64,000 nt of DNA, taken from Octopus sinensis (Eukaryota). Both the position numbers and the translations under genes were made by a program. Where the stretch lies: NCBI RefSeq assembly GCF_006345805.1, contig NC_042998.1, positions 146,072,001 to 146,136,000 on the forward strand. Reading direction: 5' to 3'. Shown here in pieces: positions 485-18,145 of this stretch (position 1 is the first letter of the stretch; the number at the start of each line of letters is the position of its first letter). The notes beneath the pieces were generated by a model, which had not been told where the DNA came from, made no database searches, and was given only the letters and a program-made list of their open reading frames with translations.

Positions 485-596
485 CATGAGGATTATCCGG
501 AACTAGAACTTGGTGAACACAGCATATTTTATAAACTTGGACAAAGTGGACTAATCTCCTTCTCTGATTACATCCTGTTGCTGACTGTACTATCAA
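485..596 (+). CDS. MICU1: MICU1 exon ([37 protein letters not shown])
   Basis: atag acceptor, gtaac donor, 112 nt, ends in phase 1; GLISFSDYI motif. Confidence 0.93.
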
Positions 597-3500
597 GTAA
601 CTTGATCCATTTCCTTCACTTCATATTTTATATCATAATCATTTTTTTTCTCATTCATAGTCTGGTTGTTTGTTTGAGCCTTTACTTTATTTTTTTTTTT
701 TTTTTTCTGTCATAAAATCATTGTCCCTAAAGACTATCTTTCAATGGGTCAAACAGGTGGAAGTTGGAGGACACCAGATCCAGGCTGTACATGCTATATA
801 CCTGCCCATTGCCTTCTCTGTGACCAAAGTTGTGTGCTCTCGCACATTTTCCTGACAAATGGGGATTGTTTTCAGATACTTGTTCTGTCTCTTACTCTGA
901 ATCACCTCTCTTAGTTTATCTTGATGTATCACTTACTGCTCACAGTACAGCTATATTCCACAAAAATAAAAGAGAACAATGCCCTTGTCATTCCAACAAA
1001 CAGTCTCCATGATTTTCTGAGCTGGTTGCTATCTCCTGAACATCAGCCTTGGAGAAAAGATGGAATACCATTCCCTAGACTGAGCCTTTATTTCTTGATC
1101 ATGAAGATATAGCCCTTTTTCATTGTCACCAGGTCAGGAAAATAAATTTTAAAAAACTATCCTTATTGGCTTCAGACAATTCTAGTAGTTCAGAGCAGAC
1201 TCCCACCTTTCTCTTCTTCAAATCAAATGCCATCTGCCAAGTTACTCAGTTTGCATATACCTTTTGATACCCAGAGTCTTCTATTGTGACCAGAGTCCAG
1301 TAAACAGATTGTGACTCATCTGCCACACCAATCAGTTTGTCCATTTGCTGGCAATCACAGTTGATGGTCTTCCAATGCATGGATTGTCTTCAAACTGTGC
1401 ACATTGCCTTCTACATATGCCAAACAACCTGTACCCCTTCTTCATCAAAAACTTGACAGCGTATTGTGTATGCTCACATTATTAGCATGCAATGAAGACG
1501 AACAGGAAGAAAAGTTACTCTACCAGTATGTGCAAGTTGAACAACCTATTTCTATTAATGGAAAAGTTATTCCCACTTTCAAGACAAACCTCATGTGTCT
1601 ATACATGAGATAAGTTTGATAATCTATTATTTGCTTATATTTGCCTTGATCTGTAATAAAATCAGCTTTGATCTCATCCTTTAACATATGCTCAATAGCT
1701 ACAACCAGAAATTCTACTTAACTCCTGTACATATATAATTGCTGACTATGTTTTATATTTGTTGCCCACTGTACTCACTCCTTTGTCTATTTTGACTCAG
1801 TAACTTTACTTATCCTGACTAATACAGTTTCTCTCATAATAATTTCCACTCAATACGTGTCTTTGATAAAGCAGAGTTAAAACATTTCATCTCTAACAAA
1901 TAACAACTGTAATGTTAACATTACAACAAACACTCGTCTAATGTACTGGTTGTGTTAGACTATTGAAGTGTGTTATCATGAAAACACTGCCAAATCAAAA
2001 TTTCCAATAATATGAATTACTTTAATAAGCCCAGCTGTGTTAAAATGTTGCTCATGAAATTTCATTAATGATTCTTTTATCCCCTTGTTAGCTAGAGTGG
2101 TATACAGCTACATAAACTGTTATAGTGGCATAGAAGAAACTAGGAAAAGTTGTAGCTTGTTGGTCAGTGTATGTTGTATATTTTGAGTGAGAAAAATAAT
2201 TCCAAAATATCATATAGAGGGATATGAATTTGCAATCCTTTAGTTAATAATTTAATATTTTATACCCACACACACACATCCTGAATCAAAAATTTCTAAT
2301 ATCTTTTCAGCACCTCAACGAAATTTTGAAATTGCTTTCCAAATGTTTGATTTAAACGGTGATGGTAATGTTGATGCTGAAGAATTTGAAAAGGTTTTCT
2401 TTTTTTAATTTTAAATCTTTATCTGTTTATTTATTTTTGTTAACATTCCTTTTATAACATTTCACTTTAGTTGACAACATATTCACAACTATATTTTGCC
2501 TCATCTTGGTGTTATATTGCTTGACTTCGTCCACTATATCCCTATCTATTTCTATCATTGACCATCTCTCTTACAAACCTCACACTTTCCATCATCTCCC
2601 TATTTTTCACCCATCTACAGTTAGAAAATAATCCCCGTAACAGATTTCTGTGCAGCTTCAGTCTACCAAATTTCATTCTTTAATCTTTGGCCAAAGTGCT
2701 GTGCAGTGGGATTGAACCCAAAGCAACATACATGTCAACAAACATCTTAGCTACTCAGATATACCTCAGGGTTTTTATGGTTTTGTTGCCATTTAAATTG
2801 GTTCCTGCAATGTCTGTTTTTCAATATTGGAACAGCTATGTATATTTAAGAGGGATTTCAAGGTTGGATGCTCTTCCTGTTGCAACCCTTATCTGTTTTC
2901 ATGTCAGGATTTTTTTTTTATTATTATTATTTATGGACTTGAAAGTGCAGAGCAACCAGTCATAATGTAAACATCATCATCAGTTCACTAAAGTGATAGT
3001 AAGCATGTCTCTTTATCATACTTTAACCTTTCACTACCTGACATAAATCCACTTGCCTCTCTTCTGCAACCTCACGCAGTTGAGGGCTCTTTTTTTTTCT
3101 CTTGCAAATTACTCAGCAACCCCATGAGAGCCAATGTCACAAAAATAGCACCCAGTACACTCTGTATAGTGGTTGGCATTTGGAAGGGCACCTAATATTA
3201 GAAACCATTCCAAAGCAGTCCTGCAATTCATTGGATTCTGTCAAACCATCCAACTCAGCCAGCATGGAATGGAAGATATACAAAGTATTATCTGCAGTTG
3301 TTTCCATCTACCAAATTTCCTCCAAGGCAAATGGTTGATTCACAGTTATAGTAAAAGACACCACACACGGGAACTGATCCCAAATCCACATGATTGTGAA
3401 GCAAACACCTAATCACACAGCCATGCCTACACCTATTATGGCACATCTCATTTAGTCGGACTGCATCAGTGTCTTTTGTCTTCTCTGCTATTCAATTTCT

Positions 3501-6500
3501 TGATGTGGTGGTTTGCATATCTCATATCACATGTAGTCCTTCTCTGTCTATCTCCTCTTCTCTTTCCAGGTTCAGCAGATCGTAATGAATCAAACTAGTA
3601 TGGGGATGCGACACAGGGACAGATCAACAACCGGGAATGTCAACAAAGGGGTCAGCTCTGCTTTGTCAACCTTCTTCTTTGGTCCAGATGCCAAGAAGAA
3701 GTTAACTGTTGAAAACTTCCTTGATTTCCAGTTACAGCTACAGAGAGAAATCTTGCAAATTGAGGTATTATTGAAATCCAGCTTTCCTTGATGACATGGG
3801 GGAGGAAGTGGCCACTTTTAAATCATTGAGTACAAAAATGTAACTCTAAATAGCTTAAAACGCTTATTTTTGCAATCATGAAGTTCTGTGCTTCACCCTG
3901 GGCTGCAGAAAGTTATTTGTTCGATTTTACATACACTTTTCTATGCTTAGCATAGATGACATGATTATTGGGGCATTGTTTAAATATTCAGATGCTTTTC
4001 CCGTTGCTAACCTGCATAATAAATCCCACATTGCACTTAGCTTCAAAGGCATAAAGCTAGCAGATGATGATTTGATGGTAGATGGTGGGTGGAGCTAATA
4101 ACCACAATGTCACTGCTGGTAGCTGAGCAATTTATCACAAAAACTCAAATGAAAATACATATATCATCTTTTAATACCAGTTTTTCATGTTGACATGGGT
4201 TTAACGAAGATTATATTAGGAACACAAGCGTTAGTGCAATAATCAATAGCTGGCACTGCAATTACAAGGAAAAAATTTGTTGTTTAATGATTAACTGAGA
4301 CATTCGTTCTCGAAAATCACAGATTTAGTTATTTGCAGGGACACCAGGCATGTCAGAGTAAATTTTGAATTCATTATTAACAGCACTTTGTCCTTCCGGC
4401 CTGTGCTAATTGTCTTTGTTTATTAGAAAATGAGAATTTACATTATTCTGTTCATTGTTGTTTAACATCCACTTTTCCATGTTTACAAGGATTGGCTAGA
4501 ATTTGATGGGGCAGATTTTCAATGCCCAGATGCCCTTTGTGTTGCTAACCTTCATCTGTTTCCAAGTAACATCACTTGTATGAGTATGATACTTGTTGCC
4601 ACTGTCATGTAATATCCAGACAAGGGTGCACACAAACACATACTTATATATATATATAACAAGGGGCTTTTTTCATTTTTTATGTGCCAAACCCACTCAA
4701 GGCTTTGGTTACTTGAGTCTGTAAAAGGCACTTGCCCAAGGTGCTGCACAATGGGACCAAGTCAAAGATATGGTTAAGAAGCAACACATCTATTCTAGAA
4801 AATGACAGGATTTAGTTACTTGCCTTGCTCTAAAGGACACTAGGCTTGAATTCTGATGAACACATCTCTTATCTAATGCTGATTGTTCTTGTTATTTAGA
4901 AAATGAGGATATTATTCTGTTGTCTAAGTAAACAGTTTATTATATTCCCACAGTTTGAACGGTTTGTTACTGAACCAGGACCCAATGCTACAATTAAAGA
5001 AAAAGAATTTGGTGCCATTTTGTTAGCTTATGCTGGGCTTCCTGATAACAAGAAGGTTCGAATGTTAAAACGAGTCAAGAAAAGTTATAAAGACCACTCC
5101 AAGGTAAATCATCATTATTTTAATATTCACTTTACCATACGTGCATGAGTTGGAGTTTAAGGTTACATGCTCCTTTTTGTCACCAACCTTCACTTGCTTC
5201 CAAGATCAGACTTGTTCACAGAATATTAGAAATGAACGAGACTGTTTGGATGAGTGACTCATTTACAACTGTCACACAATGTCAAGACAAGACAACATAA
5301 ACATGTGTGCACATGAGAGGCATCTTTCAGTTTCCGTCTACAAAATCTACTCACAAGGCTTTGGTTGACCCACAACACTTGCCTAGGAACTGAGCCCAAA
5401 ACCATGTAGTTGCTAAGTGAGCTTCTTTACCATATAGCCGTTCCTGCATATACACACTTTGGCATTTTCTCAAAGTAGATCAAATTTATTCACAGCTATT
5501 AATATTTGGATCATTGAAGGTGTTGAGTTGCCAAAATATCCTGCAATATTTCATTTGGTTCCTTATATTTAGAGTTCAAATCCTGCCAATGAAGGTTGGG
5601 AATGAAATAAAAGTACTAATCAAGTACTGGAATCAATGGTATTTACTAAACCATTCTCCCCTTAAAATTGCTGTGTCTAAATTAAAAATAATCATTTGGA
5701 TCATTTCAGGGTATTACCTTAAATGAATACATTGACTTTTGGAAGTTTCTGAAAAGCATCAATGATGTTGATACAGCTCTAAGCTTCTACCACCTTGCTG
5801 GTGTTTCAATTGACAAAGGTAAGTTTTTGTTTCATTACCCTTTTGATATACTGACTTCAGGTACCAGGTTGTTATGATACAAACTCCCCATTTTAAAGTA
5901 ATCTGAATTAAAACCTTCCATAAAAACTTATGCATAAATTTACGTTTCAAACACCAACTTAACTAAATTCTGTGCTCATCTCAGAATCTGAAACAAAGGC
6001 AGTATATTTTGATAAGAATATGATAATGAAACTAAGCTCCAGAAGTTGCAACATTTTATTGTGAACAAGTCTAACATGAGAAATAAGTGTAGAGGAATGG
6101 GGAGCAAGGAAGAACATTTTATATACTGGAGCAATGGTATTAAGGTAAGATTTATATGAAAATATACTTAATCCTGTGCAGTTTTAAGTAAAACAATGGG
6201 CTTAGATATTTAATGTCTTAAAAAATATTCTCCATAATATACTATCTGGGATTTCTACATTTATAATTAATCTTACATGGATCAGATGGAATTCATTGAG
6301 GCAGATTTTCTACAGCTGAACACCCTTCCTTGTTGCCAACCCTCACCCATTTCCAAGCAATGTAATACTACTCCTAATCAAATTTTCATAGGATTAGAAA
6401 TGGACACTGATATGAGTGATGCTTGTTTACAATTATCAGATGTTACATAAAGCCTTTCAGATTTACCAAATCAACTCCCAAAGCTGTAAAAGAACACGAT

Positions 6501-9402: not shown

Positions 9403-10946
9403 CAAAGCAACCTTGTAATAAGTAAAGGATCACGTTTCAATTACTGGGTGCAGTCATCTGGATATACTTTCTTTGGGACTTAACACCAACTTGTGATATC
9501 ATAAGAGAACCTGCATAAAACTTCTGGATCTTCATCTCAGGACATACAACTGCTATCCAGCATAAGATGAAGCTTTTGCCCTGGTAATAATTTTCCAGGT
9601 CATAAAAATCCTATAATTGCTTCTGTGTATGGTAAAAAAAAAAAAAAAATTCTGTAGTATATATAGGTACCAATGTTATATCTAATCAAAAGCAATCGCA
9701 GGCTGTTGGTCCAACTTCTTGTTCCAACCTGAAATATCTAAAAATAAGACTGTTCCATCAAATTGGAATCTTTGCCCAGAAGTGTTTTAGCTACTCCATG
9801 TTTGAAAATCCTCCTGTAACTGTTGGAAGGGTTGTCCATATCTGTATCTTGATCAAAACTGTCAAGTACATCCACCTGTTACTTTAGAAATCTTTCAGTG
9901 CCACCAAAGTTCTCTATATTTAGATTTTGAAGACCATCCCTATCAGAAGATACTTCAAATGTTCTTTATTCTTTGCATTGTAGACATTCAAACCCTGTCA
10001 CCTGTTACGTTTAAGGCAATATGATTTTGCAAAACTACCAACTTTAAATGCATGTATTAAACGTCTTAGCAATAAAATATCATCCAAGCTGCTGTATAAA
10101 AATCTGCAATTTTAATGAAATTACCATCCACATAAGCTCAATGGTTGTGGCTAAACTAAATGACTTGATATGGTCCAACTCTTCCTATCCATATAGGATG
10201 CTTACAATAGACTCCTGCTGTTGAGTATAAATGCCTCAAGACCAAATGCACAGCTAACTACTTTAGTCACACCCATTCTTGTTCTAACATTTAGCCAGAT
10301 GATACAAAACTCACATTACATGCAATGCTCTGTCAAAAGAGTTTAACCAACATTCAAATATACATTTACAAGCTCCAGTTAATAACACAAAACTCATTCA
10401 ATAGTAAAAGCCTTTATACATAAAAGATGTTACATTGAAATTTCTAAAGTGATATTATCTAGCAATTAGGAAAACAATTGTTCATAGAATGGTGGTGATG
10501 AAATACTTTGAGGTGTGAAATGTTTTAAAGCAGAGCCAGTGGCATACAGCATCATCAAAAAAGTTTTTTTTTTTAAGTTGCACAATTTTTAGCAACACTA
10601 CCACCTACTGCCAAAAGCTACCCCCAACTGGATGGATGATTCTTAATGCATTAAAAAGAAAAATGCATTTAAGCTCCATGGTAAAATCCTTAGTTTCCTC
10701 CTCATCTATGAATTTAATGATTATGAAATTTGCTATAGAATCTGAAACGTAACTTTACCATGAATTCACTTATTTGAAAGTCTTATTCAAAAACTGCTTT
10801 CTCCAAATGATGATGCATTGATGTAAAATTTTTGTTTTTAGGCTTAGAATCTACTCCGCAATGTTGTCATGTTCATAAATTCTCCATTGTCAAGCTTCAT
10901 GTAGAGCAAGAGGTTGTTGACAGACCAGATCAAACCCAAAACTCAC

Positions 10947-11042
10947 CCCCGTAATTGTTCATTGCTGCTCCCATACCACCCCCCATGCCACCTCCCATGC
11001 CACCCCCCATGCCACCACCACTGTTGAAGTCAGACATGAAAT
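10947..11042 (-). CDS. HNRNPH1: hnRNP H/F Gly/Met-rich exon ([32 protein letters not shown])
   Basis: ttttcag acceptor; G|gtgagt donor at 10946. If that donor is not used, the frame ends ...GEFWV* about 17 nt further on. Confidence 0.85.
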
Positions 11043-14000
11043 CTGAAAAGAGAAGAAATAGCATTTGAAATATCAGGCAAAAAATTTTAAACAAATGTTA
11101 CAAAGGATTTTTCTATAAAAAAAAAAGGCAAGATTAATACTTACTACCACCATAATTATTCATACCGCCGCCACCTCCCATTCCTCCTCCACCCATTCCA
11201 CCTCCAATTCCTCCAAAGCGGCCACTGCCCATGGGGCCATCACCATAGCCACCACCAACACCACCACCATCACCACGGCCATCAGGAGTAGAGTTCAAGA
11301 AGAGCTCTATGTAACGATCCTCTAGAGAAAGAAAGAAAATGAATCAAAACATGAAATAAATATAGACATAAGTATTGTAAAATAAAGAATTAAACTTACG
11401 AATGTAATTTTTGTGTCTCTCCATGGAAGATACAGCATCCTGATGGGAACTGAAGTCAACATCTGCTTCTCCTGTTGGCCTGTTATTTCTATATTCAAAT
11501 TCTATCCTGATTGGGTCTAAAGGTCTGAAGAACTGCAAATAGGACAAAAGTTGACAAAAGTTTATTATGGCATGTACACACAATATGCATGTAAAACAAG
11601 ACCAATTTGAAAATATACTTACATCTCTAATATCCTGTTCAATTGCTTGGAATGGTAGACCTCTCATGTGTACAGAATGGCCAGATTTGCTGACATACAT
11701 ACTGCCAGGTGTTGCACCTTTTGGTCTTGCAAAAGATCCACCTTGTAATCGACCTCTGGTTTGAGGACGAAGATTTCCTCTTCTGTTGATACCACCAAAA
11801 CCCATGCCACCACCATAACCACCTCCATACTCATCATAGTCATCCTCAAAGAATCCTACAAAAACACATACAACCATAAATAAAAGCGGTCTAAGTTTAC
11901 ATACTTAAAAGAATCAAGATTTATGTTTATAAAACATGAAACACCCACCTTTAACATTTCTGCCACCTCTTCCTCGGCCATAACCACCAGCAGCAAAGCC
12001 ACCACCACCCATGGCATTCATACTGCCTCCAAAACGATCGTTTCTATCATAAGGACCAGGTCTGTTACCAGCCATGAATCCTAGATTACGTTGTCGCGGT
12101 GGTCCAACATTTGCATAAGCCTCTTGCAATGTACTAGGGAATATTTCAATATATCTAAAATAAGAGAAGAACAATATTAACACTGGCACAATGCTTAAAA
12201 ACATGAAAAGAATACATCCCCATTTATACACAGGATACTGAAATTTACGTCAAAGATAATACATCACAAGTTATTTACATTTCAGTATCCTGTGTATTAA
12301 ATAAAGGGGGGAAAAAATAAAGAAAACTGAAAAAACCCATTCACACATCATCTACACACTAGTCACTAGATTTAGCCAGGTTATGTTGCTACTGTAATAC
12401 TAAGTAGCTCATTCAGCCAAAACCCTTAACACTAGGGACATTTGAATGATCAAGCTTGAGAATTCATAACATTCAGAATTATTTTTTTGTCTTCCTTCTT
12501 TACCCAAGTTACATTACTTGAGGAATAACATCCACAGATCCCCACCAACCAAATAATACTACCTTCAAGCTTGATCAAATCAAAAACCCATATAAAGAAT
12601 ATCTAGTTTCAAACGAAAATACATGCACAAATGACAAACTATAATTTGAAATCTGTTACCGAAAAATACAAATTCAGAAATACTCCTGCAAGCTAAGGAG
12701 GAACCAGTCTCAAGTTTCACTTTATAAAGATTTCATGTATGTATTAAATATATCCATTAGAAAATTGCCAGTATTCACTAATACTCAAACAGGCCATAAA
12801 TTTAGCTAACAGAAAGTATACTAGTCTAGATGAATTTTATCCAATTCAAATTGCCCATTAAGTGAATTTTTCAAAAAAGCCTTATCTTAACCTTGGGCAA
12901 AAATAACTAAAGAATGGATCCAGGCCACTCACTAAATATAGGCTGAATGAGCTTTTACATATAAAATTACAATTTTTTTTTTTAATCTTAAAACAACCCT
13001 TCTTAACTCCAGTATAATTTATTTAAAATTTAATCTACAATGATGATTATACAAAAACAATTACAGAACTTTATAGAAAGAAAAAAAAAAACAAAATCAA
13101 AACACAGAAAAATGCTTTTCATAGAATTAATTATAAGAGAGGCACAATGTTAAGCCAACCAGATTTTACTTTGCGATAGAAAAGAATAATTTATTCTAAG
13201 AAAATTTTACATGAAAGAATATTTTTTTTAAAAAAAAAGCATTTTTCAAGTGTGCAAATTTATCCCAATATAAATTATTAAAAATTAAAAAAATTAATCC
13301 AGTCATTCAAACTCAGCACACAAACCAACAATAGATAAGCCCCAACAGGCCCATCCGTCCTCCCACCTGTGCCCCAGTCTTGCCATGTGTTTATCCAATG
13401 CTTTTTTGGCTATTTCTGGTGATGCATACTGTACATAGGCCTCCCCCGTGCTGCGCCCCTGTCGGTCCTCAGGTAGCATAATCCCATTGGGGACAATCTC
13501 CAGCCCTACACACCCGTCCCAATCAGAAAGACACATAATGAAGCAACAAGTGAAACTTATCATGCAAAAAATATTAAAAACCAATTTAAATTAAGATAAA
13601 AATATCAAAGTGCATACAAAAAAGTTAAATATTCAAAATACAAACATTATAATAAGGTGGGTTTTTTTAAAAAATACAAGCCCAACCTTTAAAATTCGAT
13701 CAACATTATTATTCTTCATAACTAATAAATTAGCAATTTAACATTTATAAACAATAAGATATAAATATATTTACAGTATTTAACAAGCTATTTCATTTAA
13801 AAACATTTTCTATATATCATTCCAATAAGCTAAGAAAACAGGAAGAAAGGACTAACTTGAAACAAATGAAAAAAATACAACTCAAGAGCCTTATAATTTT
13901 TATACAATCAAAATTGAAATTACAAAATTACATCAGCAGAACATTTACAATACAAATACATGGCAATATACAAACAAGATTAACAATTCAATATCTAAAA

Positions 14001-16609
14001 AGGTTCTTAATTTAGAAAATAGCAAAGTATACAAATTTTTCCCTATTAAAATATTACAGCTCTGTAACTAAGTACATATAATCAACAACCTACACAATCT
14101 CAAAAAAATTAAAAAAAGGACAGGGAAACTTACTACCAGCATCTGAAAAACGACAATTAAGGGGAGAATATATATACAGCTAAATATATAACATCTAACT
14201 ATATACATACACTATTTAGACTACAAACTTGACTACATATCTTTATAGAAATTATAAAGCAAAGGTAGAGACCAAGCTCCTCCAATAATTTCTTACACTG
14301 ATAATGCAGTATTTGTAGTCAGTCAGATACTGATTACAACTAAAAAGTCCATAAAAAAAAAAACTATTCAGTTGTAAAGAAAAAATCTTACCTGTGAAAA
14401 ATTGAGCAATCTCTTCTTTTGAACATCCAAATGGCAATCCTCTCATCCTTACCACAGCATCACTTTGACCAGTCACCTGACTGGATCCAGCTCGCTTGAT
14501 AACCCAATCCATCTCGCTTTTCTTAGATCTGAAGACTACAAACGGTTAGATTGAAAGCAATGTCGTTAGAAACCCAAATCCTTACTTTCCCCATTCCTAA
14601 ATCTCCACAAGAATTTACAGTAAATGTGAAGAATCATAGATCAATTTCAAAGATATGAAGAATGTAAAAAAGACATGGTTTTCTAGAAATACTAAAAAAC
14701 GAATTTATTTTACTATGGTGATGCTACAAACAAGATGTCCAGTATTTTGTCAATGATTCTAATTAAACATTCAGTTATGTCTGCTTCCCAGCCAAATGGT
14801 TTGAGGTTCATCCCATGGCATGGCACTTTGGCAAATGCCTACTATAGCCCCAGGGTGATGGAAGCCTTGAGTAGCTGTAAACTAGTGCCACTAATTTACA
14901 ATATTCTGTAAAAGTACATGTCTAACCACAGGGAAGTATCTTGCTTGGCAGCAAACAAAAGGGCATTCAGCCATAGAAATCTGCCTTGAAAAACAAGCAT
15001 AAAAAATGAAAACTAAACTTCAGATTAGAAACACAAATACATCCATGTAAGATCACATTAAAAGAAATTGCTGTCTTAGAGATACACCAACAATGACAAA
15101 CCTTTAAACTGCTGCCTCAATTGGAAGTATTTCATTCCTAATGTTGTGAAAACCTGTATCCATGGAGGAATAATACCTTGCCTTGAAATAGGTGAGGGTT
15201 GGCAACAGCAAGGGCATCTAGTTAAACATGCATCGAATTCCATGTGACTCATGAATGGAAGCTGGATACTAGCATTTCCCTTCCTGAAGTAAATATTTCA
15301 TTTCCGCTTCAGTACTTCAAGTAAACCATGCTTTTTTTTTTATACATTCCAATTATTTTCGAAATTGTGCCTTAATTTCCACATTTCCCAAATTTTTTAT
15401 ACCTTACCTTCAATGTATCTCTGACCCATATGAGCATTATTCTTTTTCAATGCCAGTTCCTTGTCCTCGTTACTGACAAACTCCACAAAAGCCTCACCAC
15501 TAGGTCGACCCTCTCTTGAATAAGTGAAGTGAACTCCCATTTCCTCACCATAAACTCGGCAACCTGTTGGAAATGGAAGGCAGATCCAAATAGACTCCCA
15601 CCATTTAAGATATTCAGCAAATCTCACAAAAAAAAAAAGTACATTTTTACAACTGCACCAACCTCCCTTTTCTACAGTTTTGATAGTTTCAAACAAACCT
15701 GACCATCAAAAATTTTTCACCTTTAAAGTGAGATCAATGTAACAGTAAAAATTTAACCCGTGTGGGAACTTACGTTTACCCTAAAATGTTTTTGCTGCTC
15801 TAAACCAGTGGTTCTCAACTGGGGATCTACAATAGTATTTTAAGGGCCCTTGAAAAAATTTTGCTGTAGCTGTATTGCCAGAAACGGCTGTGTTTCAGCC
15901 TACACAAGTTAATGTGAGGGGGGAAAAAAATAGGAATTTTGAAGAACGTTTCCACAAATGTCTGCGAATCTACCAGAATAAAATAGTAATCAAAGGGGTC
16001 CATAGATAAAAAATTATTGAGAACCCTTGCTTTAAACGAATCCGACCGTCAAAACCGTTCATTAGGTAAATTAATCCTTTAAATTAGATAGATATATAAA
16101 TTGATTAGGTAAATGTCCGACACTGGTGTCACAACAAATGTAGAAGATTTTTTTTTTCATTCTCGAGTTCAAGGACTCATAAAACCGGTTAGCCGGTTTC
16201 CATGACTTGAGTTCGCAACATTGCCTCTGAAATGGACGCCGGTCCGTTACATGGTTCAAAACCAGCTATTTTAAGTGGAGAGGATTAAGTCGATTTACAT
16301 CAACTCCAGTACTTTAGTACTCTTATCGATCCCGAAGGGATGAAAGGAAGAGCTAAGCTCGGCAAGATTTGAAAAAGCTACCGAGTACAGAAATGGCAGT
16401 AATTACATTGTTTTTGATGCGTTTTCCTTCTCTAGATAAATCACTGCCTCTAAAATTAAAAACGGATGTAATACTAAAAATTTCCAAGTTTTATAGTCCA
16501 AACCTTCAAAGAACTTGAGAACATCTGAGGCTGTGGCAGCCCATGGAAGACCACGGAGTCGCACAACACATCCCTCGTCGTCATTATGTTGATCTTGCTG
16601 CTGTTGCAT
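10947..16609 (-). CDS. HNRNPH1: hnRNP H/F family protein (glorund-like; 3 qRRMs plus Gly-rich domains): complement join(16504..16609,15408..15563,14392..14535,13367..13505,11949..12154,11623..11855,11400..11532,11145..11321,10947..11042); terminal exon/stop unresolved
   Basis: Nine GT/AG exons in consistent phase. qRRM signatures: VVRLRGLPW / [11 protein letters not shown] / MGQRYIEVF; [20 protein letters not shown] / GLEIVPNGI / [10 protein letters not shown] / LGHRYIEIF; [10 protein letters not shown] / [10 protein letters not shown] / [11 protein letters not shown]. Start context GTCACC-ATG. The symbol stands for the H/F family, not strict orthology to one vertebrate paralogue. Confidence 0.95.
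11145..11321 (-). CDS. HNRNPH1: hnRNP H/F exon, qRRM3 end and Gly-rich tail
   Basis: tttctctag acceptor, A|gtaagt donor, 177 nt; [15 protein letters not shown] followed by GGM/GGY repeats. Confidence 0.92.
11400..11532 (-). CDS. HNRNPH1: hnRNP H/F exon, qRRM3
   Basis: tttgcag acceptor, C|gtaagt donor, 133 nt. Confidence 0.93.
11623..11855 (-). CDS. HNRNPH1: hnRNP H/F exon, GYR linker and qRRM3 start
   Basis: ttttgtag acceptor, GAT|gtaagt donor, 233 nt. Confidence 0.93.
11949..12154 (-). CDS. HNRNPH1: hnRNP H/F exon (YIEIF...RPGPYDR...GRNVK)
   Basis: ttttag acceptor, AAAG|gtgggt donor, 206 nt; RPGPYDR PY-NLS-like motif. Confidence 0.93.
13367..13505 (-). CDS. HNRNPH1: hnRNP H/F 139-nt qRRM2 exon (GLEIVPNG...RLGHR), candidate regulated cassette exon
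   Basis: G-rich acceptor gggacgggtgtgtag, CAG|gtggga donor. Confidence 0.94.
14392..14535 (-). CDS. HNRNPH1: hnRNP H/F exon, qRRM1 end and qRRM2 start
   Basis: tttgtag acceptor, ACAG|gtaaga donor, 144 nt; [11 protein letters not shown]...AQFFT. Confidence 0.94.
15408..15563 (-). CDS. HNRNPH1: hnRNP H/F exon, qRRM1
   Basis: ttccaacag acceptor, GAAG|gtaagg donor, 156 nt. Confidence 0.94.
15806..16029. mobile_element. hAT (Charlie-type) MITE in an hnRNP H/F intron
   Basis: Ends CAGTGGTTCTCAA / TTGAGAACCCTTG; 8-bp TSD ctctaaac / ctttaaac. Confidence 0.8.
16504..16609 (-). CDS. HNRNPH1: hnRNP H/F first coding exon ([35 protein letters not shown])
   Basis: ATG at 16609, GAAG|gtttgg donor; upstream acceptor candidates at 16669-16670 and 16634-16635. 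Confidence 0.92.
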
Positions 16610-16963
16610 GGTGACAGCAAATTTAAGAGGAATCTGGAAAGTGACTTCAAAAGACCTTGCTCAGCTCCCTAGAAATAAATATTTGTACTAAGTGATTAAC
16701 AGGAGCAATAAATAAAATCAAGTTAAATTACAAGTTACAACATGAAAAAAAAATACAAGTATGAACACGCTTTAGTTACGTTATTAAACGGAAACAAAAT
16801 ATATAAATAGTTGCCCTAATTTGAATTAAAATCAAGTTACGAAAAAAAGTTTTCTGAAATGCCGATATATAAGAAAAATAAAAATATAAAGTGAAGTAGA
16901 GCGTTCTAGTATAGAGAAATGTCTAATGCTTTTAGATAGATACAATAGAGATTTGATATAGTA

Positions 16964-18076: not shown

Positions 18077-18145
18077 CTTCTAGTTGACCTGCTAAAGATG
18101 GCGGAGAGAAATGTTCGTTTCGTTATATACTAAAGGCTCATGGGA
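18077..18145 (-). promoter_or_regulatory. Probable core promoter and short non-coding first exon of the hnRNP H/F gene
   Basis: Minus strand reads TATATAA (18129-18123) ... tttctctcCGCCATCTTtagcaggtcaactagAAG|GTAAGT: TATA-like box, YY1-type motif, perfect donor at 18076; CpG locally enriched. Confidence 0.7.

Follow-up and report, generated by a model that had tools for sequence, protein, structure and literature searches.

The window, a 64-kb stretch of octopus DNA (64,000 nucleotides), carries on its minus strand a gene that was identified as an hnRNP H/F ortholog with qRRM domains. This identification draws on protein P0002, labelled Octopus bimaculoides hnRNP H3 by its source and 100% identical to the peptide of the 139-nt exon described below, on the best solved-structure match of P0002, human hnRNP H qRRM1-2 (PDB 6DHS, E 3e-71), and on a tree of related loci. 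A genome search returned a single match to the 139-nt exon in the octopus genome, and no second close hnRNP H/F copy was found there; a search with the whole protein returned, besides the gene itself, distant loci only, one of them an ESRP1-like gene at C3:69319784-69340655. The same genome contains a long multi-RRM open frame of 1473 aa at C10:85437298-85441623. On the plus strand of the window, exons of MICU1 (mitochondrial calcium uptake protein 1) lie at 485-5820, one of which matches solved MICU1 structures.

Fourteen of 20 sequencing runs were guessed to be RNA, and the four used here are RNA-derived as judged by spliced GT-AG joints. Both junctions of the 139-nt exon are spliced in all four of these runs, which come from four studies, and the runs also confirmed the exon chain of the gene. 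At the 3′ end of the gene (11145-10400, minus strand), all four runs join 11145 to 11042 to give 468 codons, unlike P0002 (434 aa), which terminates inside the intron after 11145. The depth of this joint in run X5 is far below that of the neighbouring joints, which hints at a second form. Loose contig ends were abundant in all four runs at intronic positions 15820-16030, marking a repeated element, and at 15139 three of the four runs read C instead of T on the plus strand (G instead of A in the transcript), either an allele or RNA editing.

Table 1 Features of the octopus hnRNP H/F gene in the window
Feature	Position	Strand	Remarks
hnRNP H/F gene, coding part	10400..16669	-	9 exons here; 468 codons (RNA joints)
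hnRNP H/F non-coding first exon	ends at 18077	-	
Upstream exon, 144 nt	14392..14535	-	end of qRRM1 and start of qRRM2; ordinary GTAAG donor
Upstream flanking intron, 886 nt	13506..14391	-	candidate detained intron; unspliced contigs
Acceptor of the 139-nt exon	13506..13530	-	two G3 runs instead of a polypyrimidine tract
139-nt coding exon	13367..13505	-	4th coding exon, second half of qRRM2; joints 12154/13367 and 13504/14391
Donor of the 139-nt exon	13340..13366	-	CAG/GTGGGA, then two further G-runs
Downstream flanking intron, 1212 nt	12155..13366	-	candidate detained intron; in-frame TGA 13305-13303
Downstream exon	11949..12154	-	contains skip-frame stop TAG 12083-12081

Anatomy of the 139-nt exon

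The 139-nt exon has a phase-1 acceptor and a phase-2 donor. Its acceptor is the poorest of the gene's nine and the most G-rich (10/21 pyrimidines, 9 G), with a 7-nt pyrimidine run directly 5′ of the G-runs and a possible branch point beside it. A preliminary description of this DNA had presented the acceptor as lacking a polypyrimidine tract, unlike every other acceptor; the lack was confirmed, but the exclusivity was not, since the acceptors at 16669 (12/21 pyrimidines) and 11855 (13/21, 6 G) are also poor. The G-runs that it reported in the acceptor, exon, and donor are exactly as described, and those in the exon are indeed made largely by glycine codons, as GGG is used for five of the five Gly codons of the exon compared to 3 of 90 in the remaining reading frame, and 0 of 75 when the last exon is also set aside (counted after the exon ends had been adjusted to the RNA joints). 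On the minus strand of the 64-kb window, 30-nt windows with at least three G3 runs have a frequency of 0.14%. The donor that follows in the gene (11948) likewise starts with GTGGG, without conservation in L005, L018, and L023, so a lone GTGGG donor is no evidence in itself and it is conservation that counts.

Skipping of the exon is predicted to shift the frame into the TAG of the downstream exon once 159 codons have been read, with the next junction 132 nt further on and four junctions in all still to come, in agreement with the earlier claim of a stop well ahead of several junctions; a skip-frame stop with a later junction over 50 nt away is common to most 3n+1 exons and carries little weight alone. 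Retention of the downstream intron is predicted to end at the TGA given in Table 1, exactly where it had been placed.

Spread and constraint of the G-runs

A scan of metagenome contigs yielded 72 loci, of which 49 were analysed along with the window; of the 23 dropped, 2 were truncated and 21 distant or partial, one of the dropped loci (L063) being used as a paralog control. Among these 50 sequences, 43 genomic and 7 spliced, the exon length is 3n+1 in all 43 genomic loci (139 nt in 39, 136 in 2, 142 in 1, and 157 in 1), and 40 of the 43 have a GTGGG donor. After collapse at 90% exon identity into 22 groups, with L006 and L015 separated by hand as H1 and H3, the GTGGG donor was present in 19 groups, compared to 0 of 14 upstream donors of the same genes (any G3 in 2 of 14), a G3 run at the acceptor (-25..-3) was present in 19 groups, compared to 1 of 13 downstream acceptors of the same genes, and 16 groups had at least two G3 runs 3′ of the donor, counts that are not independent because the loci share descent. 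Among the 22 groups, the acceptor G3 is absent from the cnidarian groups (L034, L038) and L025, and among the loci compared, the GTGGG donor is absent from L025, L050, and L064. The last two (L050:374-511 and L064:3001-3153) are divergent arthropod-like copies with longer exons of 142 and 157 nt that kept the acceptor G-runs and no longer have the GTGGG donor, a possible partial loss. In the GRSF1-like paralog L063, an exon of 130 nt (3n+1) with the same boundaries has a normal tract and an ordinary GTAGGT donor.

Of 202 database proteins, 44 read through the donor of the 139-nt exon and 41 of these 44 continue with Arg-Trp-(Glu/Asp/Gly/Val), the translation of AG/GTGGG, although several of them duplicate the loci and are thus not independent of the locus counts. 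One coral sequence, P0200 (labelled Acropora muricata isoform X6), contains three additional residues at the acceptor of the exon, implying that an in-frame alternative acceptor lying 9 nt upstream has been annotated in this coral. A motif just 3′ of the donor, GGYCY-N4-5-GGGRC, occurs in the window (13340-13355, minus strand) and in other molluscs and corals (L002, L003, L005, L038-L045); it could fold a hairpin over two G-runs, for which there was no statistical or covariation support.

Clades were assigned to the loci from protein similarity together with a tree of 77 columns; cnidarians and vertebrate H1 are resolved in it, and annelid-like loci, crustacean-like loci, and L025 are placed loosely. 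The set includes bivalves (L002, L003, L005), gastropods (L004, L009 (spliced)), annelid-like animals (L018, L022, L023, L033), insects (the L010 group, L026, L029, L035), arthropod-like animals (L012, L013, L048, L025), vertebrate H1 (L006, and L008, spliced), and vertebrate H3 (L015, L007), while L034 and L040 nest in a clade with Acropora, Nematostella, and Exaiptasia (support 100/98). Exon boundaries are common to molluscs, annelid-like animals, arthropods, vertebrate H1 and H3, and anthozoan cnidarians. Those of L006 coincide with the boundaries of the octopus exon, and the L006 exon peptide is the one found in PDB 6DHS. The proposed homology to the autoregulatory exon of mammals was upheld, the mouse exon being 139 nt and qRRM2 matching 6DHS, and two human motifs named in the preliminary description are present in L006, the vertebrate H1-type locus with which the comparison was made in place of human DNA. 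The G-run layout recurs in the mollusc loci, a recurrence on which the preliminary description had staked its proposal. That proposal dated the feature to the bilaterian ancestor, and the conservation behind the date is there but goes deeper than claimed: the cnidarian loci have a 139-nt exon, GGG at four of four sites, and a GTGGG donor followed by further runs, with an acceptor that has no G3. Because it is present in anthozoan cnidarians too, the layout of G-runs is older than the bilaterians, an extension that is well supported at the level of sequence comparison.

Glycine codons were compared in 24 representatives with a 139-nt exon, using the other exons of the same loci as controls, including paralogous positions in qRRM1 and qRRM3. 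At the four internal conserved Gly sites, GGG was used in 80 of 95 cases, compared to 16 of 117 at conserved Gly sites in the other exons, and the GGG share was higher at the focal sites in 19 of the 20 loci having controls, the exception being L026. The remaining four-fold sites of the exon (V4, A22, V24, A32) are free to vary, and synonymous identity between octopus and L006 is no higher in the 139-nt exon (18/34) than in the upstream exon (9/17), indicating that the constraint is on the G-runs and not on the whole exon. The nucleotide-level conservation anticipated earlier therefore holds at the Gly codons and at the splice-site G-runs, but not across the exon, and exon-wide ultraconservation was rejected.

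A putative self-limiting switch and its alternatives

Given these features, the octopus exon probably acts as a self-limiting switch, as its counterpart does in mammals. In such a switch, excess hnRNP H/F would occupy the G-runs that lie across the donor and stand in for the acceptor tract, and the occupied runs, as we read them, may hinder exon definition through steric competition at the splice sites. The transcripts would then either be detained with the flanking introns unspliced or lose the exon by skipping, which would bring in the frame-shifted stop at codon 160 and lead to NMD. For the octopus, the anatomy of the exon, the arithmetic of the frame shift, the G-specific constraint, and the animal-wide spread are directly established, while binding, dose-dependent skipping, NMD, and detained flanking introns come from mammals only and are what we infer for the octopus and other invertebrates; the sign of the regulation is not readable from sequence. 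As to origin, we lean towards a self-limiting exon inherited from the cnidarian-bilaterian ancestor, with its sites kept as a GTGGG donor and as GGG Gly codons in the very domain that reads G-runs, the acceptor G-runs being a later bilaterian addition and the GRSF1 paralog having lost the layout.

The RNA runs, which were made without NMD block, were used to follow four long introns of the gene, the last two of which flank the 139-nt exon. Unspliced-to-total depth from 5′ to 3′ was 0.8, 2.2, 5.8, and 10.6% in X5, 0.7, 2.4, 7.0, and 15.3% in X11, 0.7, 0.8, 1.4, and 2.4% in X1, and 4.5, 8.8, 46.9, and 29.2% in X8. The flanking introns thus exceeded the two upstream introns in all four runs (1.4-46.9% for the upstream and 2.4-29.2% for the downstream flanking intron), although contig depth is unsuited to ranking parts of a gene, 3′ bias limits the reading, and in three of the four runs the signal merely climbs from 5′ to 3′. 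The raised signal fits detained flanking introns as a weak hint. The skip joint 14392-12154 was not among the 15 joints listed for the four runs; as seven weaker joints exist besides and rare forms are lost from contigs, this is no evidence that skipping is absent.

The joints listed for these runs all show inclusion, and the contigs show the flanking introns unspliced, as would also be expected if the G-runs were hnRNP H/F enhancers for an exon with weak sites, or merely slowed the flanking introns, and skipping with NMD were a vertebrate addition. We consider this unlikely. In keeping with such a role, two database proteins, a snail sequence of 184 aa (P0050) and a cnidarian-type one of 179 aa (P0192), show splicing upstream but then continue into the downstream intron, and HNRNPH is reported to enhance an exon of AKR1A1 from a G-rich site lying downstream (PMC13001508, accessible text). 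The 3n+1 length in 43 of 43 genomic loci argues the other way, although intron phases are conserved anyway, as do the repressive action described for the homologous mammalian sites (10.1101/686956, accessible text) and the NMD-target isoforms reported for C. elegans hrpf-1 (PMC2265522) and Drosophila glorund RC (PMC2689934), which do not imply the same exon. A further alternative, that the G-runs have no regulatory role today and arose as a side effect of protein constraint, through codon preference, or by chance, is very improbable; it would suit the unconserved GTGGG at donor 11948 and the unraised synonymous identity of the exon, but it is largely refuted by the excess of GGG over matched Gly sites, which include the qRRM1 and qRRM3 positions, by the free variation of the other four-fold sites, and by the intronic G-runs, which are free of protein constraint and yet kept in 19 of 22 groups.

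The switch could also be real and be driven mainly by something other than the gene's own product, such as ESRP/fusilli or SR proteins acting with CLK, or else a donor-site G-quadruplex or hairpin that responds to temperature. The ESRP1-like gene of the octopus genome is compatible with this, as are partial accounts that inclusion of worm hrpf-1 exon 5 depends on sym-2 (PMC2265522), that inclusion of the mouse Hnrnph1 exon depends also on Srsf4 and Clk (PMC4281565), and that frameshift exons of mouse Hnrnph1 and Hnrnph3 belong to a temperature-dependent decay set (PMC7726792). The octopus donor fits a four-run G-quadruplex pattern and the start of the intron folds with z = -2.7. However, the four-run pattern occurs in 8 of 22 loci only, which does not support a universal G-quadruplex across the donor; a conserved post-donor hairpin was not supported either, as z < -2 was reached in 1-2 of 27 loci and the consensus gave -0.01 kcal/mol. 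G3 runs are also the known motif of the hnRNP H/F family itself (10.1101/686956, accessible text). We regard another main driver as quite unlikely and retain self-limitation by hnRNP H/F as the preferred reading.

Comparison with known systems

The mechanism is already known in mammals; what appears to be new is the spread of the exon's G-runs, at the level of sequence, to cnidarians. In the literature searched, where subscription papers were mostly out of reach, there was no report of these G-runs outside vertebrates and none of conservation this deep for the exon. Conservation of the regulatory sequence itself from corals to vertebrates, beyond intron position, would place in early animals a circuit that carries mutations in mantle cell lymphoma and serves as a target of antisense drugs. 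It also indicates the core G-runs, namely the GTGGG donor and the four Gly codons, and in single-gene invertebrates the loop could be tested without the cross-talk among mammalian H1, H2, H3, and F.

Mammalian HNRNPH1, to which the octopus gene is orthologous, has an essential exon (4 or 5 depending on the numbering) that is autoregulated by AS-NMD and cross-regulated by HNRNPH2. According to the accessible parts of the sources, HNRNPH1 binds near this exon in human cells, poly-G mutations around it increase inclusion, and cycloheximide increases the skipped form (10.1101/686956); the mouse exon is 139 nt long, with CHX-sensitive skipping and detained introns on both sides, and H2 dose shifts the exon in a human minigene (10.1101/2025.11.04.686541; PMC4281565), while NMD of the mammalian skipped form has been confirmed (PMC13001508). 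The octopus gene shares with it the 139-nt exon, a predicted frameshift on skipping that runs into a stop in the following exon, poly-G both within the exon and beside it, and flanking introns with raised unspliced signal, as far as contig depth tells. Unlike the mammalian case, no close paralog was found in the octopus genome, so that any loop would be self-regulation, and the putative octopus switch is described here from its sequence, with skipping, NMD, and binding still presumptive. The exon is identical to the vertebrate H1 locus at 102 of 139 nt and is not ultraconserved.

Worm hrpf-1 and fly glorund, like the octopus gene, are invertebrate members of the hnRNP F/H family, and in the excerpts available both have NMD-target isoforms with a shifted frame (PMC2265522; PMC2689934). 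The comparison rests on these isoforms and does not imply the same exon; the hrpf-1 skip product reportedly retains two of three RRMs (PMC2265522), suggesting an exon other than the octopus 139-nt exon. Unproductive splicing of splicing factors has usually been lost and re-invented. The main ancient exception in the accessible part of the survey is SRSF5, whose unproductive splicing is shared by animals and fungi (PMC4379411). Like SRSF5, the octopus exon would be a case of unproductive splicing that is ancient and sits at a conserved position within the gene of a splicing factor; SRSF5 involves a poison exon or retained intron documented by ESTs, whereas the octopus case involves an essential coding exon and draws on binding-motif and codon evidence.
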